From IMG/VR virus record IMGVR_UViG_3300010938_000025: a stretch of DNA of 20,000 nt; one strand, given 5' to 3'. A program made the position numbers and the translations under genes. The notes beneath the pieces are model-generated. The model ran no database searches and was not told the DNA's origin. It saw nothing but the letters and a program-made list of their open reading frames with translations. Below are positions 2,984 to 20,000 of this stretch, in pieces (the first letter of the stretch is position 1; every line of letters starts with the position of its first letter). The DNA is from an uncultured virus (IMG/VR IMGVR_UViG_3300010938_000025) (Duplodnaviria > Heunggongvirae > Uroviricota > Caudoviricetes).

Positions 2984-4892
2984 GGTCAACCCCCAATTCA
3001 AAGATACAGGCCAACTTTGAGCCGTGGTACACATTCACCCGTTCGGGGTGAGTCTCGGCGTGCAGTGGATACCAGTTGAGTGTGAAGGGATGGATGGTCC
3101 GATCCGCGTCACAGGCTTCGCAGTTGCTCAGGCTGCGCTGCCAGCCGGTCATACCCAATTCCGTCAAAGCCTGCCACAGGCCGATGGTCCAGGCCAGTTG
3201 CACGGCCGTTCTGAGGGCCTGTGGACCGGCCTGGGTCAGCCATTCACGGGCAACCTGCACTGCCCGTTCAACGTGGTCTATAGCGCACGTTTGCGCCCCG
3301 CTGACGGTCTGATAGCCCAACTGACAGGCTTCGGTGCACAGGATACGTCCCAAGGCGGACAGGGCCTGAGCATCCTGTACCGCTTCGGCCTCACGCAGGG
3401 CGCGTAACAGGTGTCCCTGCATGGCCCGGCGGGTGGCCTGTGGGACCTGGTCATCTGGGGTGCGACCGGGGAAGCTTTGCGAATTCGTCTGAACCCGGCC
3501 ACCTGGCAGGACGGTTTGTTGGGCAAAGCTGGCCTTAGGTGTGCGCAGGTAGGCGGTTTCGAGCTCTTCTTTCAAGTTCTCAAGTTCGACGTCCGGGTCA
3601 TAGCCGACTTCTTCGAGGGCTGTACGCCACGAGAGGCCACCGAAGCCCAGTAAAGGCGCGATCTGCTCTTTGATCAGGTCGGCGGCGCGGAGGGAGATAG
3701 GTGCCAGGCGGATACGCGGTTGGGCCTTCCTGAGGGCCGGTGAGCCGGCGCGTTGGGTATAGAGGGTCACCCACCAGTTCAGCCAGTTGGTAATCTGCCC
3801 GCGCAAATAGTCCAGGCGCTCGATCAGGATGCGAGCATCCATTTCGGCGTCTCCGCGACCGGTACTGCCGCGGCCTGGGGTTTCGCCTGAGATAATCCGC
3901 ACGGAGATACCGAGCTGTCTGAAGATATGGAAGGTTAACTCTAACCATTTCTCGGTCGCCATCAGGCTATCGATAGTCGCGGGCACGAACTGTTGCACCT
4001 TGATATTATCCCGCCAGACCAGATAGCCTGTCCGGTCGCCGGTCGCGCCGCGCAATTTCTGGGTCAGGAGGGTTATCTCGCCGGCCTGTGGGTTCGAGAG
4101 GGTAAAAAGCCAGAACTGACCCTTGATGCCCTCGATCAGGCCGCGGGACATTTCTTCCAGGACCCAACGGGTTGAAATCGCGCGGATGGCGCGAGCAATG
4201 GGTGGGAACGCATAGCGTTCCCACGGGAACTTGCGTTGGGACAGGTGGCGTACCAGTTCGGTCTTGAGTGGAATGATCTGGGCCTTCTGAACGATCCGGG
4301 TGGCGTAGTCGTCGGCTAAAGCCTGATAGAAGGCCCTCGGATACGCATGTTCCTGCTGGAGTTCCATCAGCAGTTCTTCTGAGGTCAGCAGGCCCATGTT
4401 GCGTTGGCCGACCGTCTTGACCTCGCCCACCGAGACATTGGGTGGATACAGGTGCAGGATACCGGCCGGGGTTTTACCGTCGAACAGGGCCACCGGGAAA
4501 GCGTTCCCGTAGACGCCCAGGGTCAGAAGCAGGGTATCCACGGTCTCTTCAATCTTCAGCAGATCGAACAATTCCCTGATCGCTTTTCTGACACCCACAT
4601 CGCGTGTTGAGATGATAAGCGGTTTACGGCCGACGTCGATGGGTGCGGTGACCGTCTGCCAGACGTCGCCATCGCTGCGGCAGATGACCTCACACAACTG
4701 CATGGCTGCGGCAATATCAGACGGCACCGGCCGAGGCGTCCCCGTTTCTACGGCACCGGCAGTCATCGAGCGAATCCGGTCCAATTGGGCACCGCTGATC
4801 GCGTGCTCGATAGACTGGATGGCATCGCTGAGCGGCAGGCTGGCTTCGATCTTGAACGTGTTTTCGAGTTCCTGCAGGATTGCGTCAGTCAT
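2907..4892 (-). CDS. Phage portal protein with a C-terminal extension
   Basis: 661 aa ORF two genes downstream of TerL. It contains LGVYGNAF and RYAFPPIARAIRAI segments typical of portals, and AGAGGA lies upstream as an RBS. Confidence 0.72.
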   Translation of the reverse strand: MTDAILQELENTFKIEASLPLSDAIQSIEHAISGAQLDRIRSMTAGAVETGTPRPVPSDIAAAMQLCEVICRSDGDVWQTVTAPIDVGRKPLIISTRDVGVRKAIRELFDLLKIEETVDTLLLTLGVYGNAFPVALFDGKTPAGILHLYPPNVSVGEVKTVGQRNMGLLTSEELLMELQQEHAYPRAFYQALADDYATRIVQKAQIIPLKTELVRHLSQRKFPWERYAFPPIARAIRAISTRWVLEEMSRGLIEGIKGQFWLFTLSNPQAGEITLLTQKLRGATGDRTGYLVWRDNIKVQQFVPATIDSLMATEKWLELTFHIFRQLGISVRIISGETPGRGSTGRGDAEMDARILIERLDYLRGQITNWLNWWVTLYTQRAGSPALRKAQPRIRLAPISLRAADLIKEQIAPLLGFGGLSWRTALEEVGYDPDVELENLKEELETAYLRTPKASFAQQTVLPGGRVQTNSQSFPGRTPDDQVPQATRRAMQGHLLRALREAEAVQDAQALSALGRILCTEACQLGYQTVSGAQTCAIDHVERAVQVAREWLTQAGPQALRTAVQLAWTIGLWQALTELGMTGWQRSLSNCEACDADRTIHPFTLNWYPLHAETHPERVNVYHGSKLACIFELGVDHAEITETHQFSPGRTDRLRPDSGGE

Positions 4893-5136: not shown

Positions 5137-6940
5137 GGTCACCTCCGAACAGTTCCCAGGGCGGCACATACCGACCGGGGGCAGCCGGTCCGAGCTGTAG
5201 CCAGCCTAGCTCCTGTAGTTGTACCGTCTGCTGGGCGGTCGCTCTAATCCTGGAAATGCGCAACAGGCCGGACTGAACCGCGCGCAGCGCATCTGAAGCA
5301 TGATCCTGCCCGACGTCGGGTGGGACATAGCGGACCGTACCGGTCGGGGAGCGCGTTTCGGTTGTACCGGCCAGTTCTCTCAGCAAGCCTTCATCGGCCC
5401 GTGCCAGAATGATCGGGTTAGAGAGGGCCGTTCTGGTTCCATCCAGTACGGCCTGGCCTGCGGCGAGAGACTCTTTCAGCATCTCCGTATAGTACTGTTT
5501 GGCCTGAACGGTCGCTTCGCGCAGGTTTTCTTCGGCGACCGGCACGTGGCAGGTATCACAGATGTACACATCCTGCACTCGTCGCACCGCGGTGCGACAG
5601 ACGCGGTGCAACTTAATCCGGGCATCGTTGACCGTACCGGCGAAGCCGGCGTCAACCGCGAAAGTCTCATACGCGAACTCACGGTACTCAGGGGCAGACT
5701 TGAGATCGTCCAGGATACCTGCGCCTGAGCCATGTGCTTCAAGCACGATAATGACCGCCGGTTCCGGCAGGACAAACGCATTCAGAGTGTGGACCAATCT
5801 GGCCTGATACGGCAGGCGAACCCGGTACAGGTCCAGTCTGGCCAGTTCTTCCCAGCCGCGGTCCGTCTCATAGAAGACGAGCAGCACGGTCGGGTCCGGC
5901 GAATAGCCGATGTCGCCGCCGATCAGCCAACGGCGGGCGCGTTTGCGGACTTCGTCAACCGGCAGATTCAGGTATAACTGCAGGTTGTTCAGGTGCATCT
6001 GCACCTGTTCACCGGTCAGGCTGATGTGAATAAAGGGGATGTCTGCCACCCCGATCACCGGAAACGAACTGACCGCTTCATCACCCCATTGCCCTAAGAC
6101 CTGAGTGATGTAGGACTGAGAGTGGAGCCCGCCGTGCTTCTGAATTTCTTCCGCTCGGGCCGATTGGGAAAAGTACACGGGGTTGATGAACGTCGGATAG
6201 TTATGTCGTGACCAGTCGCCACCGTACTGTCGGGTCTGATCGACGGCCCAGAAGGGTGTATTCCGGTTACCGTTGGGCACGCCGGCCCACAGCCAGCGGC
6301 TGCCGGGCAGGGCCGTATTCAGGCGTTCTTTGAACGCGGCCCAATTACCGTAGGCCCCTTCATCGCCCAGCATGAAACTGCAACGTGGGCCGACCATAGA
6401 TCGGCCGGTATGCGACTGACCTTCGATCCGCAAATACCACACGAACGTATTGCCATTGCCCTGATTGAAGGTCAGGATATTCTCCGAGCGGTTGAAATCC
6501 ATAAGCATGGCTCGAAACAGCGGGACGGTCTGCAACTTGGATTCAATGCGGTCAATGATGGGGCTTAAGTGGTGTTCGTTGGGCGTAAAGAAAAGGGCTT
6601 CGGTGCGACCTTTGGGGCGGGCGGTCAGCGGCCAGAAGACGAGTCTGGCCTCGACGTTGATGGTTTTGGCCAGCTTGCGTCCGGTGCAGTACTGGACTTT
6701 GGGATTGCGGTCCAAAGCCATCAGACGTTGTCGCTCGCTGATCACCTGTCGGCCGCGCCAGGTCACCGGCAAATCCGTGCGGTCTTCAGGCACCGTTAAT
6801 TCGTGTGCCCAGAAGTGCTGCATGAACAGCAATTCATTGGTTAACAATATGCCTAACTTCAGTTCCTGCAGGCTCAGGCGGCGGCGTTGTTTCAACATGC
6901 CAACAGATTCCGTCCGGTTCTGCGACCAGTCCTCCCCCAC
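5129..6940 (-). CDS. terL: Terminase large subunit
   Basis: Walker A-like TGRKLAKT, Walker B FMLGDEG, coupling motif GVPNG, and RNase H-like nuclease motifs IGGDIG and QDHASDALR. The start could be ATG at 6898. Confidence 0.85.
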   Translation of the reverse strand: MGEDWSQNRTESVGMLKQRRRLSLQELKLGILLTNELLFMQHFWAHELTVPEDRTDLPVTWRGRQVISERQRLMALDRNPKVQYCTGRKLAKTINVEARLVFWPLTARPKGRTEALFFTPNEHHLSPIIDRIESKLQTVPLFRAMLMDFNRSENILTFNQGNGNTFVWYLRIEGQSHTGRSMVGPRCSFMLGDEGAYGNWAAFKERLNTALPGSRWLWAGVPNGNRNTPFWAVDQTRQYGGDWSRHNYPTFINPVYFSQSARAEEIQKHGGLHSQSYITQVLGQWGDEAVSSFPVIGVADIPFIHISLTGEQVQMHLNNLQLYLNLPVDEVRKRARRWLIGGDIGYSPDPTVLLVFYETDRGWEELARLDLYRVRLPYQARLVHTLNAFVLPEPAVIIVLEAHGSGAGILDDLKSAPEYREFAYETFAVDAGFAGTVNDARIKLHRVCRTAVRRVQDVYICDTCHVPVAEENLREATVQAKQYYTEMLKESLAAGQAVLDGTRTALSNPIILARADEGLLRELAGTTETRSPTGTVRYVPPDVGQDHASDALRAVQSGLLRISRIRATAQQTVQLQELGWLQLGPAAPGRYVPPWELFGGDLV

Positions 6941-7826
6941 TCCCCAGGTCGGTCACCTTAGACATCAACGTCAGAGTGAGGTACTGTTCACAGCGTGGGC
7001 ATTGCAGATAAACCTTAAACGGTCGGGTGGGAAACCCGAACCAGATCACACCCAACAGAATACCGCAGTGCGTTACCTCAAGCAGTTCTCGTTCCAGTAA
7101 GGACTGCGTTTCTTCGATCAGAGAGCGTACCAGGCTGAGTCCGGTCGCATCGCCCTGTTCTCGCTCGGAGCGCATGATGCCCATCGTCTTCTGCAACTGA
7201 CGATGTTCCGCCGAGAGTGACTTCAGGGCCTCTGAGATACTGGTCGTCAGGCTGATGACAGTCGGTTCGGTGCGACCTGACAGCGCGACCAGCTGGTCTC
7301 CCAGGAGCTCCATGCGGACTTCCATCACCGCCAGTGTCCGAATGGACGCAATATCATTGGGGCCCTGGGCGTCATACGCATCCATGTACTCTTTGATGCG
7401 TTGCTCAACCCGCGCCCGAATGTCTTCGGCCGGCACCGGGGTGATAAGCGAACCCAGCATGGCGTCCTGGCTCGGCACTACGGTCAGTTCAACACCGGCC
7501 GGGCTGGCTGAAACCGGTTTTAGCTGCCCGGTCTGAGCCAATCCGGACTGAAAGCCTGCCTCCAGCTCTTCTAACTTGCGCTGGAGGGCGTACATGCGTT
7601 CTTCCTCTTCGGTCACCGGACTGCCAGCGCGTTCTCTAATCCAGCGCGCAATCTGCTCATCGGTCACGTTCATCTTCTCGTAAGCTTCGCGCGCGGCATC
7701 CACGTCGGCCAGACCGGTGAAAGCCCGCCAGGTACCGGCCAGATGATGATAAGGAGCGATGCGGCTTGTCGATATACCGTAGATTTTGCGAATCTTCTTC
7801 GGTTTCGACTTACCCGATCTGGCCAT
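6834..7826 (-). CDS. Hypothetical helical/coiled-coil protein with a C-terminal Cys cluster; positional candidate for terminase small subunit
   Basis: Lies directly upstream of TerL, with GGAG before ATG 7826. It has a basic N-terminus, heptad-like helices and HCG...CPRC. The TerS function is inferred from position only. Confidence 0.5.
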   Translation of the reverse strand: MARSGKSKPKKIRKIYGISTSRIAPYHHLAGTWRAFTGLADVDAAREAYEKMNVTDEQIARWIRERAGSPVTEEEERMYALQRKLEELEAGFQSGLAQTGQLKPVSASPAGVELTVVPSQDAMLGSLITPVPAEDIRARVEQRIKEYMDAYDAQGPNDIASIRTLAVMEVRMELLGDQLVALSGRTEPTVISLTTSISEALKSLSAEHRQLQKTMGIMRSEREQGDATGLSLVRSLIEETQSLLERELLEVTHCGILLGVIWFGFPTRPFKVYLQCPRCEQYLTLTLMSKVTDLGSGGGLVAEPDGICWHVETTPPPEPAGTEVRHIVNQ

Positions 7827-8100
7827 CTGACTCCAGCGCACCGACTACCTGCAGCGCTTCCTCCGGCGAGTGCACAACGGCCACCTGACCCCGCCAGTCC
7901 GCGTGCCAGTCAATCTGGTCGGGCGTGAGTATACCCTGCGGGTGCTTGACCTCCAGCAGAAACGTCTGCCCCCGATACCCAACCAACAGATCGGGACAGC
8001 CGCCTCCCACCCTGTGCAACGAGTAGACACTACACCCCACAGCCCGTAATGCCCTGACTATTTCGGACTGGTTTGCATCCGTCCTGCCATTGCGCCGCAT
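7810..8100 (-). CDS. VRR-NUC / PD-(D/E)XK nuclease (resolvase-like)
   Basis: RTDANQSEIV...GCPDLLVGYRGQTFLLEVK...LTPDQ carries the PD...EVK catalytic motif of phage VRR-NUC proteins. Confidence 0.85.
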   Translation of the reverse strand: MRRNGRTDANQSEIVRALRAVGCSVYSLHRVGGGCPDLLVGYRGQTFLLEVKHPQGILTPDQIDWHADWRGQVAVVHSPEEALQVVGALESDGQIG

Positions 8101-8106
8101 ACCCCC

Positions 8107-8135
8107 ATTGTACTGTGCATGGTGACATTTGTCAA
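8107..8135 (-). promoter_or_regulatory. sigma70-type promoter of the packaging operon, probably giving a leaderless mRNA
   Basis: Minus-strand TTGACA (8135-8130), 17 nt, TACAAT (8112-8107). Only 6 nt separate the -10 box from ATG 8100. Confidence 0.75.
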
Positions 8136-8188
8136 CTTTGTGGCACACTCAGCCTCAAAAGATTAAGCCAACCCTTCAGCCAACCACT

Positions 8189-8216
8189 TTGACCCGGCAA
8201 TGATTTGATGTATAAT
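8189..8216 (+). promoter_or_regulatory. Divergent sigma70-type promoter
   Basis: TTGACC (8189-8194), 16 nt, TATAAT (8211-8216), upstream of an AGGAGG RBS and ATG 8249. Confidence 0.65.
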
Positions 8217-8248
8217 TGTTGCAAATTACCTGTCTTTCAGGAGGCCGA

Positions 8249-8485
8249 ATGTCCACCGTCGTACACCTATCCGCCACCGAAGTGCGCCGCAACGGCATGA
8301 AGCTCACCCAACTCGTCGCCCGCGGCAATCCAATCATCCTGACCCATTACCGCAGTCCTTTCGCCCTGGTCATCCCGTTCCCCTTCAGCCTGGAACAGGC
8401 CCGACAGACCATCGTCCAACTCGTCACCGGCGCCTATAAACTGCAACCAGAACCAGAACCAGAACCAGAACAAATGGACCTGTAG
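8249..8485 (+). CDS. Phd/YefM-family antitoxin-like DNA-binding protein (78 aa)
   Basis: LSATEVRRNGMKLTQLVARGNPIILTHYRSPFALVIP fits the Phd/YefM N-terminal pattern. Strong RBS; acidic PEPEPE tail encoded by CCAGAA x4. Confidence 0.65.
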   Translation: MSTVVHLSATEVRRNGMKLTQLVARGNPIILTHYRSPFALVIPFPFSLEQARQTIVQLVTGAYKLQPEPEPEPEQMDL

Positions 8486-8488
8486 TCA

Positions 8489-9082
8489 ATGCCCGACTTC
8501 ATCTTAGAACCACTGGATACCAGACAGCGCGCCATCGGTAGCTTCCTCGTGCACGTGGCCGGCTTTGACTCCATCCTCTGCCTGCGCACCTCACGTCGCC
8601 TGCCCGAGTCCGTCCTCCAACACATCCGCCAATCCGCCGAATCCTCCTCCCCACCCACGACCATCCTCGTCGTCCCCGACTACGTCACCGCCTGCCGCCT
8701 CATCCCCATCGACCCTACCCTCGATCCAGCCTCCACGTCCGCCTCCCTCACCCCACCTGACCGGCTCCCCCCTTACCAATCCCCACCGGCCCCACGCCCA
8801 ACCACCGTAGACTTCTTAACCTTCACCAAAGACCAACTCCTCGCCCTCGCCGCCGACGAAACTTACCCACCTGTCCCTCCCCTCTTCATCCGCGCCGCCC
8901 TCGCCTTCGCTCAAGACTTCTCCCGCTCCGACTTCATCCTCCCTTCCCAACTCCTCCTCTCCGGCCACTGGCCTCACCTCGACGCCATCCTCCGCCCTCT
9001 CAACTTCCATATGTCTGCCACCGAAGCCATCATCAACTTCCTCATACCTATCATCACCAGCTACGAACAACTATCGCCCTAA
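8489..9082 (+). CDS. Hypothetical Pro/Leu/Ser/Thr-rich protein (197 aa)
   Basis: Starts 3 nt after the previous stop, with strong C bias at third codon positions and no recognisable domain. Confidence 0.55.
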   Translation: MPDFILEPLDTRQRAIGSFLVHVAGFDSILCLRTSRRLPESVLQHIRQSAESSSPPTTILVVPDYVTACRLIPIDPTLDPASTSASLTPPDRLPPYQSPPAPRPTTVDFLTFTKDQLLALAADETYPPVPPLFIRAALAFAQDFSRSDFILPSQLLLSGHWPHLDAILRPLNFHMSATEAIINFLIPIITSYEQLSP

Positions 9083-9348
9083 ACCACTCCACCAATTCAA
9101 ACTTGAATACCACCCACCTCCCCCAACTATAACCTCCGCTCAACCCCACCCCAGGTACGCCTCAGCCCACAATCCCCAATCCAGACTCACGGTACGCCAC
9201 CTGTGCTGCCTCGCCTGCACCGCAGCCCCCGGTGAGACGCTCTCAGCCTGCACAACGGGTGTGCTGTGGCTCAGCTTGTGCCTGGCGGGTGTTTTGGGGT
9301 GAAAATGCGGGGAACAGGTTACCCCCCCCCGGCGGCTGCGTTCGGGTC

Positions 9349-9377
9349 TTGCCGTTGATGAGGGGGGATGCTACACT
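9349..9377 (+). promoter_or_regulatory. sigma70-type promoter with extended -10
   Basis: TTGCCG (9349-9354), 17 nt ending TGc, TACACT (9372-9377). It is followed by a leader hairpin (9389-9418) and a GGGAGGA RBS. Confidence 0.55.
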
Positions 9378-9445
9378 TGCAGCAAAACGCGCGAGATTGA
9401 CGCGCGATAGTCTCGCGCAAAACCTTGACAATCGGGAGGAAGACC

Positions 9446-10342
9446 ATGAAAAAGGCACAAACTCAACCACAAACTCAACCACAGGCTGAACAGGCTCAAC
9501 CGGTCCAGGCGCAGGCGAAGCCGCCTGTTGCCTTATACCGGCAGGCAGGTATCACATCCACACTACCAGCGACCCTCGAGGCGGTGTACTCACTGTATAC
9601 TGCTCTCCTCGAATTGGCGCCAGTTGAAGACGCCGACCGTGCTTTCCTAAAAGCACGTGTGCGGGCTGGGCAGAGTGAGCGGGATGCAGAACGGTTGCTT
9701 ATAACCGTCAAGAATCGGCTAAGCCTCGACGTGGCCAAGCAAAAATTCCAGCAAGCCGATCACGGCGGCTTGCTGGAGAGGTGCGTGGAACTATATACGC
9801 ACATTGGCGACGTCCAGAACCGCGTTGCCGAATTGATGAACTCCGAGCGTGCGCGCATCATCCGCGAGGAAGAGACCGCGCGCGCCCTCGAGCGTGTCAA
9901 AATGCGGCTGGATGAAGAGCTAGGGCTCGGCGCCCTCCAAGAGCGGTTGCGCGAGCACTCAACCCGGCTCGAGGGGCTACTTGGTAAAGCAGGCTGTGGC
10001 CTGCGTTGGCTGGACGGTGCGCCCCTCTTAGTGCCCGTAGGCGAGCTAGCCGCGTTTGATGCCCTTGCCACAAGTACCGCCGCGCCACCCCGTCCATCGC
10101 ACACCACCTCGGCACAATCGGCGGCATCGGGGTACCGTGAGTATACGGTCACTGACGGTGCCCGTCAGGCCCAATTCACGACGGGTGTCAGGCTGTTCGA
10201 GGCTGTTACCGGTCGCGCGTTAAAGCGAGATAGCCAAGGGCGTAACCAAGAGAAGGCGGTATGGTGGAAGTATGCCCAGATCGATGATGAGCAAAAGACG
10301 ATCACCATAAGCCCTGATGCCTTCGACCGGTACGTCAGCTAA
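9446..10342 (+). CDS. Hypothetical coiled-coil protein (298 aa)
   Basis: GGGAGGA RBS before ATG 9446, with its own promoter and terminator. It has a Q/P-rich N-terminus, a long helical middle, a linker and a small C-terminal globular domain. Confidence 0.75.
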   Translation: MKKAQTQPQTQPQAEQAQPVQAQAKPPVALYRQAGITSTLPATLEAVYSLYTALLELAPVEDADRAFLKARVRAGQSERDAERLLITVKNRLSLDVAKQKFQQADHGGLLERCVELYTHIGDVQNRVAELMNSERARIIREEETARALERVKMRLDEELGLGALQERLREHSTRLEGLLGKAGCGLRWLDGAPLLVPVGELAAFDALATSTAAPPRPSHTTSAQSAASGYREYTVTDGARQAQFTTGVRLFEAVTGRALKRDSQGRNQEKAVWWKYAQIDDEQKTITISPDAFDRYVS

Positions 10343-10373
10343 CAACTAAATAAACCGAATATCGTTTCAGATC

Positions 10374-10410
10374 AGACCCGAATTGATCGCGCGCAATTCG
10401 GGTCTTTTTT
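10374..10410 (+). terminator. Intrinsic terminator
   Basis: 12-bp stem AGACCCGAATTG/CAATTCGGGTCT with an 8-nt loop, followed by a T-tract. Confidence 0.88.
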
Positions 10411-10415
10411 GTTGT

Positions 10416-10642
10416 GCATAGCACGTAGCGTAGTGTAGCGCGTGGCGTGGCGCGTGGCGTAGCGCGTGGCGCGTGGCCGTGTAACGCGTAGCGTGGCGCG
10501 TGGCGTAGTGTAGCGCATAGCACGTAGCGTAGCGTAACGCGTAGCGTGGCGCGTGGCGTAGCGTAGCGCGTAGCATAGCGTAGCCGTGTAGCGCATAGCG
10601 TAGCGCAGCCGTGTAGCGCGTGGCGCATAGCGCGTGCTATGC
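10416..10642. repeat. Low-complexity array of 5- and 7-nt units (GCGTA/GCGTG/GCGCGTG) bracketed by 10-bp inverted repeats
   Basis: Directly visible. GCATAGCACG at 10416-10425 has its reverse complement CGTGCTATGC at 10633-10642. Confidence 0.9.
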
Positions 10643-10680
10643 CACGTCTGTAACGTCTACCCCTGACCGGTGTCCCGGTA

Positions 10681-10762
10681 TAAGTCCGCGCCCGGGCCGT
10701 GGTCAGTGGTAGACACAGGTGACCACGGCCTGGCCGTAAGTCCGCGCCCGGGCCGTGGTCAG
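10681..10762 (+). repeat. 26-bp perfect direct repeat x2 with an intervening inverted partial copy
   Basis: TAAGTCCGCGCCCGGGCCGTGGTCAG at 10681-10706 and 10737-10762, with TGACCACGGCCTGG between them. Confidence 0.9.
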
Positions 10763-10775
10763 GAGGGAGAACACG

Positions 10776-11051
10776 TTGAGACCAGGTATTGCCGTCATCA
10801 TCATCCTGGCCATTGCGGTCCAGGTGGTCCAGGTCGGCGCGGGGCAGGCATCCCCGGCTGACCTGGACCGCGCGGTCTACATGCCGCTCATGGCTAAGAG
10901 CGGCTTTGTATGGCCGCGACCGCCGACGCCGGTACTGACGCCGACGGCGACGCCATCGGCCACGCCGTGCCCATCAGCACAGTTGGCCGACGGCTGGCCG
11001 CGACCGCCGACGCCGGTACCATGCCCGACCATTACCATTACAGGGAGGTAA
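10776..11051 (+). CDS. Small secreted Pro/Thr-rich protein with a VYMPLMAK motif (91 aa)
   Basis: AGGAGG RBS and TTG start, signal-peptide-like N-terminus, and WPRPPTPV twice (25-bp DNA repeat at 10911-10935 and 10995-11019). Confidence 0.7.
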   Translation: MRPGIAVIIILAIAVQVVQVGAGQASPADLDRAVYMPLMAKSGFVWPRPPTPVLTPTATPSATPCPSAQLADGWPRPPTPVPCPTITITGR

Positions 11052-11053
11052 AG

Positions 11054-11263
11054 ATGAAGGTGAAAGATAACGTTAACGTCGTGGAGGTTGCCGTCAGGCA
11101 CGCGGTGGAAGACGCCAGGTATGACCTGGCGTTACAGTACCGCTGGTGGTCATCTACATGCCCGACACCGCGGGCCTGCGACGGGGATGCATACGCCACG
11201 GACGCCGTGTACCGCGCGGCGTATGACGCCGCATACGCCGCCTACATACGGCGTTACAGCTAA
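11054..11263 (+). CDS. Hypothetical protein (69 aa)
   Basis: GGGAGGT RBS before ATG 11054, which lies just after the previous stop. A terminator follows. Confidence 0.65.
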   Translation: MKVKDNVNVVEVAVRHAVEDARYDLALQYRWWSSTCPTPRACDGDAYATDAVYRAAYDAAYAAYIRRYS

Positions 11264-11294
11264 ACAATAAACACACAACCGAATACCACCTCAG

Positions 11295-11324
11295 AAAGCC
11301 GTAGCGATCTGCTACGGCTTTTTT
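11295..11324 (+). terminator. Intrinsic terminator
   Basis: Stem AAAGCCGTAGC/GCTACGGCTTT with loop GATCT and a T6 tract. Confidence 0.88.
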
Positions 11325-11404
11325 GTTGCCTTGCGGTCGCAAGAGGCCGGCGCCGCAGGCGTGGACCGCACGGGCTCACGCGCCCTCAGCGTGCAATCAG
11401 GACA

Positions 11405-11558
11405 CAGGTAACCGCGCTGGTCGGGTATTGCCAGGTGACCGCGCTGATCGGGTATTGCCAGGTGACCGCGCTGATCGGGGAGTACAGGTGACCGCGCTGC
11501 CAGGTGTTGCCAGGTGACCGCGCTCCGTACTGGTCGGGGAGTGCACAGGTGACCGTGC
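11405..11558. repeat. Direct-repeat array, core CAGGTGACCGCGCT, 6 copies
   Basis: Copies start at 11405, 11432, 11459, 11485, 11511 and 11546 (spacing 27, 27, 26, 26, 35). Confidence 0.9.
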
Positions 11559-11620
11559 CTGGCCTGTTTAAGCCTACGGTTTACGCTGCCGTCGGGCGGG
11601 CGGCACGGGCGTAACATACT

Positions 11621-11895
11621 ATCACCTGACACCACTGTCTGACACAACCCGCATGACATCACTGTCTGACACAACCCGCATCACTGCCTGACACAATCCG
11701 CATGACATCACTGTCTGACACAATACATCACTGCCTGACACAACCCGCACCGTCTGACCTGACATCACTGTCTCACAACCCGCATCTGACACAATCCGCA
11801 CCGTCTGACGTGACATCACTGTCTGACACAACCCGCATCACCGCCTGACGATTACAACCCGCACTACAACCCGTAACCCGCACTACAACCCGACC
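11621..11895. repeat. Modular direct-repeat array (CATCACTGTCTGACACAAYCCGCA, about 8-10 imperfect copies, decaying into TACAACCCGCA units)
   Basis: Shuffled modules TGACATCACTG, YCTGACAC and AAYCCGCA are directly visible. Confidence 0.9.
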
Positions 11896-11970
11896 CTGGC
11901 GAGTTCTCACAGTGTAGAACAGGTCCCGGTGCAGGTTGACACGGGCACAACCTGCGGCAAGGTAGGTTGC

Positions 11971-11979
11971 TTATCCACA
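11971..11979 (+). promoter_or_regulatory. DnaA box (perfect consensus)
   Basis: TTATCCACA in non-coding DNA, about 70 bp before the 22-bp repeats. It is a single copy, so chance occurrence is not excluded. Confidence 0.55.
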
Positions 11980-12051
11980 ACGGTATCAACGACGGAGATT
12001 GCCGCGGGAGGTACTCCGCACTGGTGACCGTAATCCGGGTCGTGCGGTGCA

Positions 12052-12126
12052 AGTCTGGTGGGAATCTGGCGGGAGTCTGGTGGGAATCTGGCGGGAGTCT
12101 GGTGGGAATCTGGCGGGAGTCTGGTG
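12052..12126. repeat. 22-bp perfect tandem repeat x3.4 (11-bp subunits), iteron-like
   Basis: AGTCTGGTGGGAATCTGGCGGG at 12052, 12074 and 12096, with a partial copy at 12118. Confidence 0.9.
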
Positions 12127-12199
12127 CGGACTTATGGTGACGGTCTACTGTGGTCGGGCTTATTGCGGTTTGAACGTCATTTGCCTTTCTACGGCTTTA

Positions 12200-12312
12200 C
12201 TACTTCTTCTTCTACTTGAGAGAGTCGGAAAACTACGTAGAAACGGTCTGTGTGAGACACTCGCGGCGTAGAAGAAATGTAGAAGAATCGGTCAGACGTA
12301 GAAGAATCGGTC
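12200..12312. repeat. GTAGAAGAA repeats (3 direct copies plus an inverted TTCTTCTAC)
   Basis: GTAGAAGAA at about 12268, 12279 and 12298, the last two extending to GTAGAAGAATCGGTC. The inverted copy is at about 12206. Confidence 0.75.
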
Positions 12313-12351
12313 GGGCAGCAGGATTCGGCGATAGTTATGTCGAATTAGCCG

Positions 12352-12502
12352 ACAGGTGAGAGAGCCGCCAGGTGCGAGGTAGCAACAGGTGACCGCACCT
12401 GACCGGCACCTGACCGAAGTAGTCGGGGTGACAGGTGACCGGACCTGACCGGAGCAGTCAGGTGCACCTGACCGAAGTAGTCAGGTGACAGTGACCGGAC
12501 CG
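12352..12502. repeat. CAGGTGACC/CACCTGACC mixed direct and inverted array
   Basis: Includes the perfect 16-bp palindrome GTCAGGTGCACCTGAC (12457-12472) and an imperfect duplication of about 38 bp (starting 12406 and 12464). Confidence 0.85.
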
Positions 12503-12530
12503 GTTGGCTGTAGTCGGATAGATTCGATAC

Positions 12531-12579
12531 TGCCGTTATCGCTGCTATCCTCGCCGTTATCGCCGTTATCGCCGTTAAC
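12531..12579. repeat. 9-bp tandem repeat (CGCCGTTAT), about 5 imperfect copies
   Basis: Sequence tgccgttatcgctgctatcctcgccgttatcgccgttatcgccgttaac. Confidence 0.8.
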
Positions 12580-12658
12580 AATCCGCTACCGACACCCGTT
12601 TTTTTACGTCAATTTCGCAATTTCGTGTAACTTTTTACAATTAGTCTACATAAAAGTA

Positions 12659-12687
12659 TTGACAAAAAGCGATATATATGATATAAT
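12659..12687 (+). promoter_or_regulatory. Perfect-consensus sigma70 promoter of the rightward operon
   Basis: TTGACA (12659-12664), 17 nt ending TGa, TATAAT (12682-12687), with an AT-rich upstream region. Confidence 0.9.
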
Positions 12688-12736
12688 ATATCACTGTGAT
12701 ATATATCGCCACGGTACACTCACGGCGATATATATC
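12669..12736. promoter_or_regulatory. Operator-like GATATATATC palindromes overlapping the promoter and start site
   Basis: Perfect copies at 12698-12707 and 12727-12736 form a 13-bp inverted repeat. Near-copies lie at 12671-12680 and 12680-12692. Confidence 0.65.
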
Positions 12737-12762
12737 CGGCCTCCAGGCCAGACCGGGGTAGG

Positions 12763-12835
12763 CTGTCGATGGCTGCCCGGCCCGTCGAAGATACCGTAGC
12801 AGTTTGCGGCCAGACGACCGGGCGGCCGTTGACAG
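12763..12835 (+). ncRNA. Candidate structured leader RNA (long hairpin)
   Basis: 18-bp stem, 12763-12780 with 12818-12835, with three G-U pairs. It encloses CGTC/GACG and CCGTAG/TTGCGG helices. Confidence 0.5.
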
Positions 12836-12857
12836 GCCAGCACGCCGAAATAATGCC

Positions 12858-13661
12858 ATGAGTACCCAGATCGACGATTTCGATTTTGCCTTCAAGAAAA
12901 GCAGGCAGGCGGCATTCGCCGCCGAACGTAACTCTCACTCACCGCTATCTCCAGCCGACCTGGACGATCTCGTCCAGGTCGCGCTCATCGGTTACTGGCG
13001 CGGCTGGACCCGCCAGCCGCACAATGTCGGCTACGCCTACGCGTCCGCCCGGAACGCGGCGGTAAAGTTTCTCTACCGCTGCCTCATCGGGCGGAACCCC
13101 TTCGCTCTCTCGCTCGAAGATGTCGGCCACGGTGCAGAGCCTGGCGACAGCCTGATGGTCACCCCCGATCCCGAAGACGAAGACACAGACAAAATCCTCA
13201 ATTTTGACTCTCAAGATTTTCAGGCCGCGGTTGCTGAAATCCTGTTGCATAGCCGCAGCAAAAAAGGCCGCCGTGGGGCACAGGCCGCACGGCGCGACGC
13301 GGCCATCGTGTGCGGCCTGGCCAGCGGTCTATCGCCGGCGGTGGTCGCCGGGCGTCTGGGACTACCGGTCGAGCACGTCAAGACATACCGCAAGCGTGCT
13401 CGCAAGGTGCTGGAGGCGTACCTGCAGGCACACCCCAGGCGGTGTGTCCTGTGTGGGTCTGCCGAGAGCCTGACCAGGCACCACATCGTCCCCCGACGAT
13501 GTGGGGGAGACTACGCGCCGGATAACCTGGCGTGGCTGTGCAAGACCTGCCACGCGCAGGTTGAGAATATTTACCTCCGCCAGGAACGTCCCGGCATGTC
13601 GCCGGATGACTGGCGGCGCATCTTTCAATCAATCAATCAAAGGGAAGGAGAAGCAAAATGA
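12858..13661 (+). CDS. ECF-like sigma factor fused to a C-terminal HNH endonuclease domain (267 aa)
   Basis: Region 2-like DLDDLVQVALIGYW...YAYASARNAAVKFL and region 4 HTH GLSPAVVAGRLGLPVEHVKTYRKRARKVL, then CVLCG...HHIVPRRCGG...DNLAWLCKTCH. The start codon is uncertain because the RBS is weak. Confidence 0.8.
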   Translation: MSTQIDDFDFAFKKSRQAAFAAERNSHSPLSPADLDDLVQVALIGYWRGWTRQPHNVGYAYASARNAAVKFLYRCLIGRNPFALSLEDVGHGAEPGDSLMVTPDPEDEDTDKILNFDSQDFQAAVAEILLHSRSKKGRRGAQAARRDAAIVCGLASGLSPAVVAGRLGLPVEHVKTYRKRARKVLEAYLQAHPRRCVLCGSAESLTRHHIVPRRCGGDYAPDNLAWLCKTCHAQVENIYLRQERPGMSPDDWRRIFQSINQREGEAK

Positions 13662-14761
13662 ATGTCTGTGCAATCTGCTCTAAGCCCGATTGCGATATCC
13701 ATGCGGACGCGGTCGTGGTCCACCTGGACCCAGACCTGATTCGACGGCTTGAGCGGCGCCCAAGCCGCGATCTGGCCTGGGCCCGGTACCACATCGACCA
13801 GGCAGGCGTGGGGATCATACCCGTGACTTTTGCCGTTAACCCCCCAAACGCGCCCCTGACCGGCACGTTCTGGGTACGGGCAATACGGCATCAAAAAGTT
13901 CGCCTGGACCAGGCGTTTATAAGCCTGGTCCAGGTAAACGAAACGCACGCGGCCAAAACATTGTACCTGCATGAATCCGCCACAACGTTCCGCCGGCGCG
14001 GAACATTGCTCCTCGGGCGCGCCGAGGGTGGATTCTTCGCTTTCTCAACGTCGGCAAACGCGCCGGAAACCACCCGGCGTGAGACCGTCGGCGAGTGGTT
14101 TGCCGACGTGAGCGCCCTGGAGGCGCTCACGTGGGAGCCGGGACACTTTCCCGGCGTGATTCGGCAGGCAAGTGTGGTAGACCGCACATACGCCAACCAC
14201 AGCCCGGCTGCGACGGTGTACGACCACCGGGAACGCCCAGAGGTGGGGGCGCGCGTGGTGGCTACACGGAAGATTACACACGCTCAACAGGTCTTTGAAC
14301 ATTGCGACCTGTACCCGGCCGACGGTCAGCCGTTGTTGGCGACCGTCATTCTGGGCAGTTGGAACGTGCAACTCCCGGACGACATGGTGGCCGAGTATAT
14401 TTTTCAGTCTACGTCGCACCAACGTCGTGTGCAAAGCACGACGTTGTTGATCATCGCAACCAGGCTGGCCACCCCCGGCCTGGATGAGGTGGAATTGGAA
14501 TTGGCCGTTCTAAATGCACTTGAGGACGGCAATCCGGTGGCCATATGCAACGCCTATGAGGCGCTCATCCTGGCCAGGGTTGCCAACGGACACCTGGTTG
14601 TCACCCCGGAGCATGAGGCGCTCTGGGGCAGGTACCAGGCGTGTAGGGCCCGAGCCGAACGGTCCAATTTCGAGAACGAGGCCGATGTCGCCTGGGAGAA
14701 GGCAGTGGCTCTCTTAAGGCGACTGTCAAATTTCCCGAACGAGGAGGGATGCCATGACTAA
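13658..14761 (+). CDS. Hypothetical protein (367 aa)
   Basis: AAGGAG RBS and ATGA overlap with the previous gene. N-terminal CxxC...C..H; no family recognised. Confidence 0.75.
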   Translation: MNVCAICSKPDCDIHADAVVVHLDPDLIRRLERRPSRDLAWARYHIDQAGVGIIPVTFAVNPPNAPLTGTFWVRAIRHQKVRLDQAFISLVQVNETHAAKTLYLHESATTFRRRGTLLLGRAEGGFFAFSTSANAPETTRRETVGEWFADVSALEALTWEPGHFPGVIRQASVVDRTYANHSPAATVYDHRERPEVGARVVATRKITHAQQVFEHCDLYPADGQPLLATVILGSWNVQLPDDMVAEYIFQSTSHQRRVQSTTLLIIATRLATPGLDEVELELAVLNALEDGNPVAICNAYEALILARVANGHLVVTPEHEALWGRYQACRARAERSNFENEADVAWEKAVALLRRLSNFPNEEGCHD

Positions 14762-19171: not shown

Positions 19172-19960
19172 ATGCGCCAGGCTATCCGACGGACCACGCA
19201 CGATCTCTTCCCACCCCTGGCCAGGGTGACAGGTCTGGCCGTATTCCAGATCATCGGCCTGAGCCACGTCTGGAATGAGACCTGGCTGTTCTTCAACCGA
19301 CTGTATGCCGATACGTGGCGTACCCTGACGGCAACGGCTACGGTTGAAGTCGGCCTGATAGTCATGCTGGCCTTGACTTTTCTGGCCGCAAGTGGCAGCC
19401 GACGCGAACTCGTTCTTGCCGCCACGCTGGACGTCGGCCTGGTCATCATTTCGGGGATCGCCAATTACACCAGCGCCGCCGCAAGCCTGGCCGATACACC
19501 GGCCACCTTACTGCCGTTCGGTAGTAAAGAGCTGGTCGCCTGGCTGGCGGGCCCGACGTTCGTCGCGCTACTGTTCGTGGCCGGCGCCCTGCAGGGTGAC
19601 GGTCTCGGCTACCTGCTCGTGGCGCTGGAGGCTCACGCCAGAGAGCGCAGCCTGCACCGGGCCGAACTCGATGCCCGCCGGGCCCAGGCCGAACACGAAC
19701 GCGCCCTGGCACTCAGAAAGCTTGAACTCGACTACGCCCTGCGCACCCGGCGCGCCGAGCTCAAGGCCGAACTGAAGGCGCAGACACAGGCGCCTCAGGC
19801 AACCCCTGTGTCGGCGGATGAACTGGCCAGACAGGCCGGCGTCAGTAAACGCACCGCCTACCGCAGACTGGCCAGCCTCCGCCGCTCAGCGGCTCAAGAC
19901 CCTGTCACAGGCGGTGACACAGGCGTGACACGCCTGTCACAGGTAGTGACACAGGCGTGA
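19172..19960 (+). CDS. Membrane protein (about 4 TM) with a coiled coil and C-terminal HTH (DUF2637/SpdB-like architecture)
   Basis: Hydrophobic helices, an E/R/A-rich coil and VSADELARQAGVSKRTAYRRL; GGAGG RBS. Confidence 0.65.
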   Translation: MRQAIRRTTHDLFPPLARVTGLAVFQIIGLSHVWNETWLFFNRLYADTWRTLTATATVEVGLIVMLALTFLAASGSRRELVLAATLDVGLVIISGIANYTSAAASLADTPATLLPFGSKELVAWLAGPTFVALLFVAGALQGDGLGYLLVALEAHARERSLHRAELDARRAQAEHERALALRKLELDYALRTRRAELKAELKAQTQAPQATPVSADELARQAGVSKRTAYRRLASLRRSAAQDPVTGGDTGVTRLSQVVTQA

Positions 19961-20000
19961 CACGCCTGTCACAGGTAGTGACACAGGCGTGACACGCCTG
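19901..20000. repeat. 32-bp tandem repeat with an internal 19-bp palindrome; continues past the window end
   Basis: GTGACACAGGCGTGACACGCCTGTCACAGGTA starts at 19914 and 19946, with a truncated copy at 19978. Confidence 0.92.

Follow-up and report, generated by a model that had tools for sequence, protein, structure and literature searches.

Replication origins of the iteron type, such as lambda ori, P1 oriR with incC and incA, and the oriV of RK2, F and pSC101, combine repeats of 17-22 bp lying on the same strand with an AT-rich stretch and a DnaA box. In P1 and others, a second, distant set of the same sites controls firing by pairing. Tandem repeats also make up plasmid centromeres, as in R1 parC (11-bp repeats) and F sopC (43-bp repeats), and centromeres of type II and type Ib are direct-repeat arrays with helical phasing. 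At the concatemer junction of T7, arrays of short repeats flank the terminal repeat, just ahead of the early promoters.

Phage T5 has untranslated repeat DNA in three places among its pre-early ORFs (629, 188 and 1200 bp); these regions are described as rich in direct and inverted repeats, with nine DRD copies and with DnaA boxes paired 3 bp apart (10.1101/866236). Eight DnaA boxes, forming four pairs, are placed within 131-bp inverted repeats inside the 10-kb terminal repeat, an arrangement reported to be conserved across 25 phages (10.1101/866236). Borgs, which are archaeal elements, contain perfect, A-rich repeats distributed genome-wide, with partial flanking units and no established role (PMC9879509).

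The region analysed here occupies positions 10416-12740 of a stretch of 20,000 nucleotides of phage DNA, referred to below as the window. It is tentatively read, from features of its sequence, as a multi-protein cis-acting platform, in which a replication origin may be combined with the control of an early promoter, P3.

Setting and composition of the region

By its sequence the phage is a novel tailed phage, an orphan with a contig of about 75 kb, whose module of terminase, portal and glycosyltransferase genes is common to a metagenomic phage family. Two gene blocks diverge from the repeat region, this leftward packaging module on one side and a rightward early block on the other. A putative small-terminase gene and the terminase gene start 2.6-3.5 kb to the left of the region and are transcribed away from it, and GC skew changes sign across the centre, being -0.20 to its left and +0.24 to its right.

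Eight separate arrays were detected by TRF in the window at 10410-12577, all inside a single frame of 2325 bp. When merged TRF arrays with a period of at least 5 and a score of at least 50 are counted per 2325-bp frame, the maximum reached elsewhere, in 53 related-phage sequences (772,226 bases), is three. An earlier note on this DNA had described six or more different arrays in about 2.3 kb, far more than compact phage genomes usually carry; the observation is confirmed, every array named there being recovered by TRF and repeat finding. Within 10416-12740, 47.2% of the bases belong to 9-mers recurring within 150 nt, compared to 4.2% in the rest of the window, while 200 first-order randomised versions of the region gave a mean of 1.2% and a maximum of 5.9%.

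The repeated units are of at least five unrelated types. All arrays are oriented on the + strand, with the exception of A6, where sites occur on both strands, and of a minority of - copies of the GTRGC motif of A1. Matches between units, as evaluated by TRF, reach 100% in A5 and A8 and range from 64 to 92% in the others, and higher-order periods (53 and 49-52 nt) are superimposed on the short units. Outside the region, a 32-nt array with 97% matches begins at 19901 and is cut by the end of the window, and short in-frame repeats are found within genes too (8445-8471, 9456-9483 and 10911/10995). The non-coding gaps at 8149-8248 and 9083-9445 were scanned for repeats and contain no arrays.

Judged by codon usage and family searches, the arrays are non-coding. 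The 19 ORFs located on or beside them score between -0.31 and +0.03 per codon, with a GC3 of 0.44-0.71, as compared to 0.11-0.24 and 0.63-0.80 for the ten training genes; 15 ORFs overlapping arrays gave nothing against Pfam at E <= 0.01. One weak PHROG match (7.9e-5) was obtained for the ORF over the 9-nt array, whose translation is a repeated SPL. Codon scores, GC3 and Pfam thus speak against the possibility, raised in the earlier note, that the arrays are translated as low-complexity proteins. Its description of the region as mostly non-coding is correct for the arrays; the span as a whole is not one non-coding block, being made up of two non-coding parts (10343-10775 and 11264-12857) separated by two small genes (10776-11051 and 11054-11263). 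Similarly, a position just after a terminator, attributed there to the arrays in general, applies to A1 and A3, not to the other arrays.

Left part: terminators, A1, A2 and two small genes

A 298-aa orphan gene (9446-10342) is ended by a predicted intrinsic terminator, T1 (10374-10411, + strand), consisting of a hairpin at 10374-10405 (-21.8 kcal/mol, z -5.9) followed by a T-run. Array A1 (10410-10650, +) begins directly after it. Over about 240 nt it repeats the pentamer GTRGC, between copies of which a GC spacer may be inserted, producing a 5/7-nt beat, and shows higher-order periods of 12, 17 and 53 nt (TRF rows 10428-10635 and direct-repeat families). GTRGC is present inside the region 27 times on the + and 6 times on the - strand. 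As RNA, A1 folds no better than its shuffles (z +0.9).

Next to A1, A2 (10657-10775, +) contains a perfect 26-nt direct repeat, the two copies of which (10681-10706 and 10737-10762) enclose an inverted arm (10720-10736), and a single CAGGTGACC site at 10716. Its predicted RNA fold (-81.8 kcal/mol, z -3.98) is that of a leader hairpin ahead of a small membrane-protein gene, in which the ribosome-binding stretch GGAGGGAG pairs with the upstream CUACCCCU. The two small genes that follow (10776-11263, +) encode proteins of 91 and 69 aa, neither with a match in family searches; their codon scores are -0.01 and 0.14 and their GC3 values 0.75 and 0.74. A hydrophobic helix is located at the N-terminus of the 91-aa protein, in which a Pro-rich segment is present twice, corresponding to an in-frame 25-nt duplication 84 nt apart. 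This two-gene unit is ended by a second predicted terminator, T2 (11293-11329, +), with a 13-bp hairpin at 11293-11323 (-19.8 kcal/mol, z about -4.26) and a T-run, which precedes array A3.

Arrays with conserved cores

A3 (11405-11566, +) is composed of units of 26/27 nt, in which a 14-nt core, CAGGTGACCGCGCT, is found in six copies spaced by 27, 27, 26, 26 and 35 nt; TRF reports a period of 27 with 4.5 copies. Mismatches affect 3 of 84 cells in the core and 32 of 78 in the remainder of the unit (p 3.9e-9). In A4 (11623-11892, +) a 22-nt core, CATCACTGYCTGACACAAYCCG, here called the Q site, is present in eight copies at 11623-11850, all on the + strand and irregularly spaced (27, 22, 27, 20, 37, 51 and 22 nt), with mismatches in 9 of 128 core cells and 28 of 88 of the rest (p 4.7e-6); two copies of a perfect 19-nt repeat follow at 11856-11892. 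Near-invariant cores separated by variable spacers, as in A3 and A4, suggest a pattern of the kind seen in binding-site arrays.

The core of A3, the P site, recurs in A7 (12347-12503, +), where seven anchored CAGGTGAC/CACCTGAC modules are densely packed in about 150 bp, the full CASSTGACC being present in five; the first unit of A7 is similar to the A3 unit. In the window CASSTGACC occurs 15 times (1.13 expected), always on the + strand, and 11 of the occurrences are inside the region. P-site cores thus form two sets about 900 bp apart, A3 on the left and A7 on the right, which bracket the centre of the region, in addition to the single copy at 10716.

The centre itself (11893-12051) is a unique segment of 159 bp, apart from a 12-nt repeat at 11972-11995 detected by TRF. 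It contains the only perfect DnaA box of the window, TTATCCACA (11971-11979), with a degenerate box, GTATCAACG (two mismatches), 3 nt later. Boxes with at most one mismatch number 5 in the window where 2.4 are expected, and 20 of 200 shuffles give that many or more, which is no enrichment; a single perfect box is, at the level of sequence, a thin and post hoc signal of an origin. No IHF consensus site was found by searching.

To the right of the centre, A5 (12052-12126, +; R sites) consists of 3.4 copies of a 22-nt unit with 100% matches, as assembled. The unit is formed by alternating 11-mers, TCTGGTGGGAA and TCTGGCGGGAG (6 copies), phased by 11 bp, i.e. one helical turn, with GANTC at every 11-mer junction. 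Motif scan and repeat finding define A6 (12192-12312) by its S sites, GTAGAA(GAA), two of which are - strand sites with their ends at 12192 and 12215, the other four being + strand sites (12237, 12268, 12279 and 12298); GTAGAAGAA is found at 12268, 12279 and 12298, with one inverted copy at 12207, and a perfect 15-nt repeat is present twice. The last array, A8 (12525-12577, +), has three perfect copies of the 9-nt TCGCCGTTA, as assembled, and degenerate copies upstream.

Arrays of this kind could represent neutral, satellite-like DNA, filling a dispensable gap by slippage and unequal recombination, in which case the cores would be parts not yet decayed. The copies in A5, in A8, in the pairs of 26 and 15 nt and in the 32-nt array at 19901 differ little or not at all, and hence are young; the higher-order periods of 53 and 49-52 nt fit repeated rounds of duplication; the in-frame repeats at 8445-8471, 9456-9483 and 10911/10995 show that genes are affected as well, and relatives do not conserve the arrays. 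Borg elements similarly carry perfect tandem repeats, both intergenic and genic, with no documented role (PMC9879509). Neutral growth does not, however, easily account for mismatches so unevenly distributed along the unit (p 3.9e-9 in A3 and 4.7e-6 in A4), nor for fixed cores with spacers of variable length, which are unlike simple slippage, nor for the sharing of one 9-10-nt core by two differently built arrays and a singleton. In addition, motif counts reveal a strict single-strand orientation, and the other non-coding gaps (8149-8248 and 9083-9445) are free of arrays. We consider this explanation unlikely, although one to be reckoned with.

Promoter P3 and the first early gene

Past the arrays, GC content drops to 25% (12598-12740, +) within a window of 60% GC. 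This stretch has phased A/T tracts and contains the predicted promoter P3 (12659-12687), a perfect match to the sigma-70-type TTGACA-17-TATAAT (promoter scan, 12/12), the -35 box of which lies about 80 nt downstream of A8. Three GATATATATC palindromes, at 12671, 12698 and 12727, are located over P3 and just downstream of it (0.12 expected). Of all 60-bp duplexes in the window, that at 12631-12690, which adjoins the arrays, has the lowest stability (z 5.4).

The first gene driven by P3 would be that at 12858-13661 (+), encoding a 267-aa protein in which an ECF-sigma-like N-terminal part is apparently fused to an HNH nuclease (Pfam HNH, 4.9e-9). For the sigma-like part, Sigma70_r2 (8.5e-5) and TIGR02937 (7.8e-5, over positions 23-164 of the 165 of the profile) were both below cut-off; the top rows of a Foldseek search were all ECF sigma factors, but at E >= 3.5e-3 and with a pLDDT-58 model.

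Could the arrays serve transcription only, as operator, enhancer or roadblock sites which time P3 and insulate it from upstream units, with no role in replication? The perfect P3 with its three palindromes, predicted to be operators, the closeness of A8 to the -35 box and the position of arrays after terminators would all fit. A survey of 792 kb of the phage family identified 80 near-consensus promoters, and the four with the most repeat-rich 500-nt upstream stretches are P3, one promoter of the relative L023 and a divergent pair of the relative G005, which carries an 11-nt array of 4.7 copies. The other 76 strong promoters are, however, without comparable upstream arrays, and by motif scan the array motifs are not repeated at the other promoters of the window. 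To our knowledge, moreover, 1.3 kb with five site families is far beyond any described control of a phage promoter. A role restricted to transcription thus appears improbable.

Relatives and database searches

Five whole relatives, with terminases 28-35% identical, were compared. The earlier note had called for a comparison of array positions; arrays are absent from most of these distant relatives, and a cluster of three is present in one of the five, G005, where it lies about 35 kb from the terminase gene. Because four of five relatives lack a cluster, and that of G005 is far from the terminase, the array architecture is not a conserved trait of the family. Since the phage has no close relatives, the function of the region rests on inference.

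The region might mark the end of the genome which enters first, or the concatemer junction. It would then either pause DNA entry in the manner of T5, once the small rightward units at 8249-11263 are inside, or, like the arrays of T7, flank a short terminal repeat ahead of the early promoters. Ahead of the main early promoter, untranslated repeat blocks alternate with small, rightward genes bounded by terminators; the perfect DnaA box and the degenerate one 3 nt on recall the T5 pairs 3 bp apart, and the 159-bp unique centre, with arrays to either side, is similar to the T7 junction. Both the terminase gene and the putative small-terminase gene begin 2.6-3.5 kb leftward, and arrays are found at contig ends in two relatives, L023 and G005, spanning the end overlap in the latter. 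Assemblers, however, commonly end contigs at repeats, and the terminal overlaps of the relatives (62-144 nt) may be assembly overlaps. Against T5 in particular, there is one box pair instead of eight boxes, with boxes not enriched; inverted repeats as large as IRD'/IRC' are missing, the longest arm in the window being 23 nt; and no window protein has a PHROG match to the T5 pre-early proteins dmp, A1 and A2. The T5 hallmarks, i.e. eight paired DnaA boxes in large inverted repeats and the dmp/A1/A2 genes, are therefore absent from the window, and the genes at 8249-11263 fit no PHROG family at E <= 0.001 and nothing relevant at E <= 1. We hold an entry or terminus function to be doubtful.

In a related scheme, which we regard as very improbable, the region would be a programmed checkpoint on incoming DNA in a phage family unrelated to T5. 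Entry would at first be limited to 2-4 kb, from which the small terminator-bounded units at 8249-11263 would be expressed; host or virion proteins, including DnaA, would then bind the arrays and keep back the remaining genome until it is released by the early products. Were this true, it would mean an independent origin of two-step genome delivery, or of a multi-protein DNA 'sponge' for host factors.

Least probable is the centromere of a phage-plasmid proposed in the earlier note, in which arrays such as the 11-bp-phased A5 and the P-site sets would be partition sites for ParB-, ParR- or ParG-type adaptors: a 131-aa protein with a ribbon-helix-helix-like C-terminus (Pfam RHH_1, E 0.0017, below cut-off) and a membrane-anchored HTH protein are encoded 6-7 kb downstream, but no par, rep, ParA, ParM, ParB, integrase or repressor families were recognised in the 20-kb window (Pfam, PHROGs and NCBIfam), a search of 72,556 plasmid records gave no DNA match to the region, and no terminase relative was found among 185,579 species genomes, so that nothing points to a resident prophage or plasmid. 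The phage-plasmid idea is thus unsupported.

A proposed platform for replication and early control

The multi-protein cis-acting platform, with a probable replication origin and control of P3, is the explanation which we tentatively prefer, while giving it less than an even chance of being correct. A role at the DNA level is favoured because a promoter scan of both strands of A3-A8 finds nothing promoter-like, terminators precede A1 and A3, and the region has no match in Rfam. The landing platform for several proteins, suggested in the earlier note, is borne out as far as non-coding arrays, retained cores, at least five unit types and an operator-guarded promoter in easily melted DNA are concerned. 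We infer the binding proteins, the use of DnaA, origin activity and looping from such features.

The origin part of this reading is plausible. Same-strand repeats of the iteron type are present in A5 (22 nt, 3.4 copies), A4 (22-nt core, eight copies) and A3 (14-nt core, six copies), and an unwindable AT-rich stretch, which also houses P3, lies beside them (12631-12690). In the relative G005, genes for a DnaB-like helicase and for a DnaG-type zinc ribbon are present, and a replisome of this type requires an origin, which is counted in favour of this part. The absence of DnaA boxes from the arrays of G005 and L023 counts against it, as do the missing IHF consensus site and the lack of such a cluster in four of the five whole relatives. 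Searches of the roughly 20 proteins of the window against Pfam, PHROGs and NCBIfam recognised no initiator (Rep-, O- or DnaA-like), beside the repeats or elsewhere, no helicase loader and no primase; this is weak counter-evidence, because most of these proteins are orphans and a novel initiator is possible. Also counted against an origin are the perfect, young A5 and A8 and the higher-order periods, which indicate ongoing expansion without need of a function, and the number of repeat families: known iteron origins have one or two, and we know of none with five or more. A strong promoter with phased A/T tracts could, by itself, explain the AT-rich stretch.

In the proposed mechanism, initiator and accessory proteins of the phage would load, together with host DnaA at the central box pair, on the iteron-like A4, A5 and A6. 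The CASSTGACCG sets A3 (six copies) and A7 (seven anchored copies) bracket this core of about 800 bp, and the binding of a single dimeric protein to the two sets could cause their looping or pairing, comparable to handcuffing-type control. Strand opening would take place in the adjacent 25%-GC stretch, assisted by transcription from P3, which a repressor acting on the three GATATATATC palindromes would shut off.

Comparison with known systems

With the Borg repeats the arrays share genome specificity, recent tandem duplication, partial units at the flanks and occurrence both between genes and in frame within them; they differ in being mostly degenerate with conserved cores, GC-rich and concentrated in one region of the window. 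The threshold used for Borgs (perfect units in 3 or more copies, spanning 50 nt or more; PMC9879509) is reached in the window by A5 only (75 nt, 100%).

The likeness to T5 includes non-coding repeat blocks totalling about 2 kb among small early ORFs, a variety of direct repeats and palindromes, a consensus DnaA box with a variant box 3 bp away and an HNH gene nearby (10.1101/866236). In contrast to T5, there is here one box pair, there are no long inverted repeats (longest arms 23 nt), and the arrangement is not conserved in relatives; the phage families are unrelated, with no PHROG or DNA match.

As in plasmid centromeres, the A5 repeats are phased by the helical turn and A7 is a dense cluster of one short site, but the window is without a partition operon and many unrelated arrays would be left unaccounted for. 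As at the T7 junction, short-repeat arrays stand on both sides of some 160 bp of unique sequence, and strong host-polymerase promoters come next, with the first early genes; here the arrays exceed those of T7 in length and diversity, the terminase genes are oriented away from the region and a terminal repeat is not in evidence. Compared to iteron origins, the region has at least five unrelated families instead of one or two, extends over about 2 kb instead of 0.2-0.5 kb and lacks a recognisable initiator gene, but it shares with them same-strand repeats with conserved cores, an AT-rich stretch, a strong promoter and a distant second set of sites, and its one perfect DnaA box may be a further likeness.

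Organization of the array region

TRF and a repeat search recovered all the arrays named in the earlier note. Eight arrays, A1 to A8, follow one another from left to right (10410-12577), and are all described on the + strand reading, except for two inverted sites of A6. An intrinsic terminator (10374-10405, +; z -5.9) ends an orphan gene for a 298-aa protein and is followed by A1 (10410-10650, +), in which GTRGC pentamers with or without a GC spacer extend over about 240 nt, and by A2 (+), a perfect 26-nt repeat present twice, with an inverted arm between the copies. Two small genes (10776-11051 and 11054-11263, +) separate A2 from a second terminator (11293-11323, +; z -4.3). The 1.6 kb at 11264-12857, where no credible gene is found, contain A3-A8 and an AT-rich stretch. 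A3 (+) is made of six copies of a CAGGTGACCGCGCT core and A4 (+) of eight copies of CATCACTGYCTGACACAAYCCG, then followed by a 19-nt repeat present twice. Beyond a unique centre of 159 bp lie A5 (+), a perfect 22-nt unit repeated 3.4 times and composed of alternating 11-mers; A6, with four direct and two inverted GTAGAA(GAA) sites; A7 (+), a dense CAGGTGAC/CACCTGAC cluster; and A8 (+), three copies of TCGCCGTTA with degenerate copies besides. At the right end, the AT-rich stretch carries a perfect TTGACA-17-TATAAT promoter, P3 (12659-12687, +).

The frequency of these repeats is well beyond chance. 9-mers recurring within 150 nt cover 47.2% of the bases in 10416-12740; the share is 4.2% in the remainder of the window, and none of 200 random versions exceeds 5.9%. 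The unusual array density pointed out in the earlier note was borne out, since a single 2325-bp frame holds eight merged TRF arrays, compared with a maximum of three per frame in related phages (53 sequences, 772,226 bases).

The arrays are also non-coding, and their reading as translated low-complexity proteins fails on codon scores, GC3 and Pfam matches. Ten confident genes from the window served to train a codon model and score 0.11-0.24 with a GC3 of 0.63-0.80; all 19 ORFs overlapping or flanking the arrays score between -0.31 and +0.03 per codon, with a GC3 of 0.44-0.71. Pfam matched none of 15 array-region ORFs (E <= 0.01), and the PHROG search of 15 such ORFs gave one weak match only, for the ORF over the 9-nt array (A8), which translates as repeated SPL. 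No Rfam family (E <= 1), tRNA or IHF consensus was found.

Nature of the repeats

The repeats look, from their sequence, like binding-site arrays still expanding. Within the 14-nt core of A3, mismatches occupy 3 of 84 cells, versus 32 of 78 in the remaining unit (p 3.9e-9); the corresponding figures for A4, whose spacings range from 20 to 51 nt, are 9 of 128 in the core and 28 of 88 outside it (p 4.7e-6). The motif CASSTGACC, the core of the P site, occurs 15 times in the window versus 1.13 expected, always on the + strand. Eleven of these sites fall within the region, grouped into a left set (A3) and a right set (A7), plus a single site in the A2 hairpin; the two sets bracket about 800 bp containing A4, the centre, A5 and A6. 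Together with its flanks the motif is a near-palindrome (GTCA-SS-TGAC), which makes a dimeric protein a natural candidate for its predicted binder. The sites of A5 are spaced by 11 bp, one helical turn. A5, A8 and several repeat pairs are perfect, and higher-order periods of 49-53 nt overlie the short units; both features point to a duplication that is recent and ongoing.

In-frame repeats are also present within genes: AACCAG x4.5 (8445-8471) gives a 78-aa protein its C-terminal Glu-Pro run, QTQP repeats derive from a 12-nt repeat x2.3 (9456-9483), and WPRPPTPV occurs twice owing to a perfect duplication of 25 nt with copies 84 nt apart (10911-10935/10995-11019). The tendency to form repeats thus extends beyond non-coding DNA.

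Other types of element were considered and discarded. A CRISPR-like array was ruled out because units abut or have spacers of only 0-29 nt, and tandem promoters for a phage sigma-like protein because motif spacing, evaluated by eye, differs from unit to unit. Restriction-site decoys were rejected as GGTNACC matches the CAGGTGACC form of the site only, and not CACCTGACC.

Centre, promoter and neighbouring genes

The unique centre hosts the sole perfect DnaA box of the window, TTATCCACA at 11971, with GTATCAACG 3 nt after it. The box is a weak signal, as boxes at one mismatch are not enriched (5 versus 2.4 expected). GC skew across the centre goes from -0.20 to +0.24. Further right, the 60 bp at 12631-12690, which include P3, form the least stable duplex in all 20 kb (z 5.4), with 25% GC in a window of 60% GC. 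Three GATATATATC palindromes (0.12 expected) lie on P3 and a short way downstream of it, a placement expected of operators, and are putative operators.

The first gene after P3 (12858-13661, +) encodes a 267-aa protein in which an ECF-sigma-like part (regions 2 and 4) is joined to a C-terminal HNH nuclease. Its sigma matches are below curated cut-offs, its structural model is weak (pLDDT 58) with Foldseek matches that are suggestive only, and one relative was found, 47% identical and of the same architecture, on a 3.6-kb contig. At the other end of the region, in the leader of the gene for a 91-aa membrane protein (10636-10800, +), the 26-nt repeat pair of A2 and its inverted arm fold into a long hairpin (z -3.98). 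Its minimum-energy form has the ribosome-binding stretch GGAGGGAG paired, which suggests that the gene may be under translational control. A search of 1.84 billion representatives retrieved, for the 298-aa protein, its own fragment only, and Atlas gave no usable match. No relative of the window helicase exceeds 42% identity, over 7-20% of its length, and as a lone protein query it detected no locus in the viral contig collection. The model of a 367-aa protein was unusable (pLDDT 38).

Additional features were noted elsewhere in the window. A 262-aa protein (19172-20000, +) has several N-terminal hydrophobic segments and a coiled stretch, both recognized by eye, and a C-terminal HTH (Pfam HTH_11, 1.1e-5); the last 60 nt of its ORF enter an array of GTGACAC-containing 32-nt units (x3+, 97% matches), which runs beyond the window end, and the protein may be a membrane-anchored DNA binder beside its own site array. 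Within 8001-9500, about 1.2 kb are strongly G-poor on the + strand (skew -0.29, -0.55 and -0.24 in successive 500-nt bins), spanning an orphan gene for a 197-aa Pro/Ser/Leu-rich protein and a C-rich non-coding stretch (9083-9330). A divergent promoter pair, 8135(-)/8189(+), within 8107-8216, separates the packaging block from the rightward units.

The phage family, and arrays and promoters in relatives

The element is a tailed phage, with a contig of 74,870 nt. Its 603-aa protein is the large terminase, according to Atlas feature scores of 0.98-0.99 to clusters carrying Terminase_6N (TM 0.5-0.6) and to a tblastn match to an annotated terminase (E 6e-10), and an amidase endolysin is also encoded in the window. 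A metagenomic family, with genomes of 72-84 kb, is delineated by terminase relatives of 28-46% identity. Its members share a module formed by VRR-NUC, a 335-aa putative small terminase, terminase, portal and glycosyltransferase; no terminase relative was found in 185,579 species genomes. Early-side proteins of the window are unmatched in these relatives, except for a distant SNF2 helicase and short HNH-domain matches of the sigma-HNH protein. DNA searches found no match for 9000-14000 among phages or for 10300-12900 among plasmids. Exact array units do not occur in viral, metagenome or genome contig collections, and the A4 core and the paired P-site pattern are unmatched in the viral collection.

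Two glycosyltransferase genes (578-2687, -) directly follow the portal gene, and at least one is kept in this position family-wide (e.g. L006 and G001-G005); such a constant component is unusual for a packaging/head module. The terminase match of four relatives falls into two pieces, 0.4-1.2 kb apart (G004 6458-9331, G005 36642-38756, G003 41671-44355, L036 10001-11983), a split that suggests insertion of an intein, an intron or a homing endonuclease; an intein-bearing terminase cluster is among the Atlas structural neighbours of the window terminase.

The array cluster is absent from four of the five whole relatives. The fifth, G005, has three arrays in one frame, of a different kind: tandem hairpin units of 25 nt (x5), 40 nt (x4.8) and 24 nt (about x9), on its loci L079 (11556-12345) and L076 (1-190, 2770-2821), placed on either side of the gene for a small membrane protein where the late operon ends. 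A 62-nt "terminal repeat" of this contig is part of the 24-nt array. About 70 nt before a perfect early promoter, G005 also carries an array of 11-nt units (x4.7). The relative locus L023 has a modular array at the contig end, with a near-consensus promoter about 350 nt downstream of it. In L023, a C-rich non-coding stretch similar to that of the window lies between array and promoter, and an FtsK/SpoIIIE-family ATPase (2057-3538, +; Pfam 1.2e-21) is encoded about 1.9 kb downstream of the array.

Near-consensus sigma-70 promoters (at least 11 of 12 matches) number 80 in the 792 kb of the window phage and its relatives, versus 8-9 in random versions; some precede packaging and portal genes. Upstream repeats are most abundant at four of them: P3, the L023 promoter and the divergent pair of G005. 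The comparison thus indicates that array clusters reappear sporadically, close to one special promoter region in each genome. Conservation of array positions across related phages, a check proposed in the earlier note, was not observed: neither positions nor units are kept in the five whole relatives and L023. DnaA boxes do not co-occur with arrays in relatives. No closer relatives were found in contig collections, protein representatives or species genomes.

Discussion

The best supported reading of the sequence is that the region would be a cis-acting nucleoprotein platform. As to its function, it may act as a replication origin combined with early-promoter control, a reading which is favoured, if tentatively, because the arrays resemble iterons, a DnaA box pair lies in the centre, highly unstable promoter DNA adjoins them and the whole sits between divergent modules. 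Against an origin, the 20-kb window has no recognisable initiator gene, the site families are too many for a classical origin, conservation is lacking and the promoter alone could account for the AT-rich DNA. Neutral, satellite-like repeat growth appears unlikely, as core conservation and motif reuse speak against it. A terminus or entry-control region of the T5 or T7 type is rather improbable; the sequence hallmarks of T5, as given in the Davison T5 preprint (10.1101/866236), are absent from the window. Control of transcription only is given a similarly low probability. The centromere of a phage-plasmid, proposed in the earlier note, is very unlikely, because partition, replication-initiator and integrase families are all absent among the window proteins and no plasmid or genome relatives exist in the searches performed.

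The region thus brings together, in about 2 kb, at least five distinct site families, one of them in two bracketing sets, in a phage lineage that is otherwise orphan. It is small but unusually rich material for discovering new DNA-binding proteins and for studying how several of them are coordinated on one platform. Should it be an origin, it would establish how replication is controlled in an entire uncultured family of ~75-kb phages; if neutral, it would be a clear bacterial-virus case of satellite-like repeat growth. To our knowledge, only a handful of repeat-rich phage control regions have been dissected. Such regions, among them origins, centromeres and the stop signal of T5, are contact points of phage DNA and host machinery, and the systems with which the region may be compared are the T7 junction, lambda, P1, RK2 and R1 parC.
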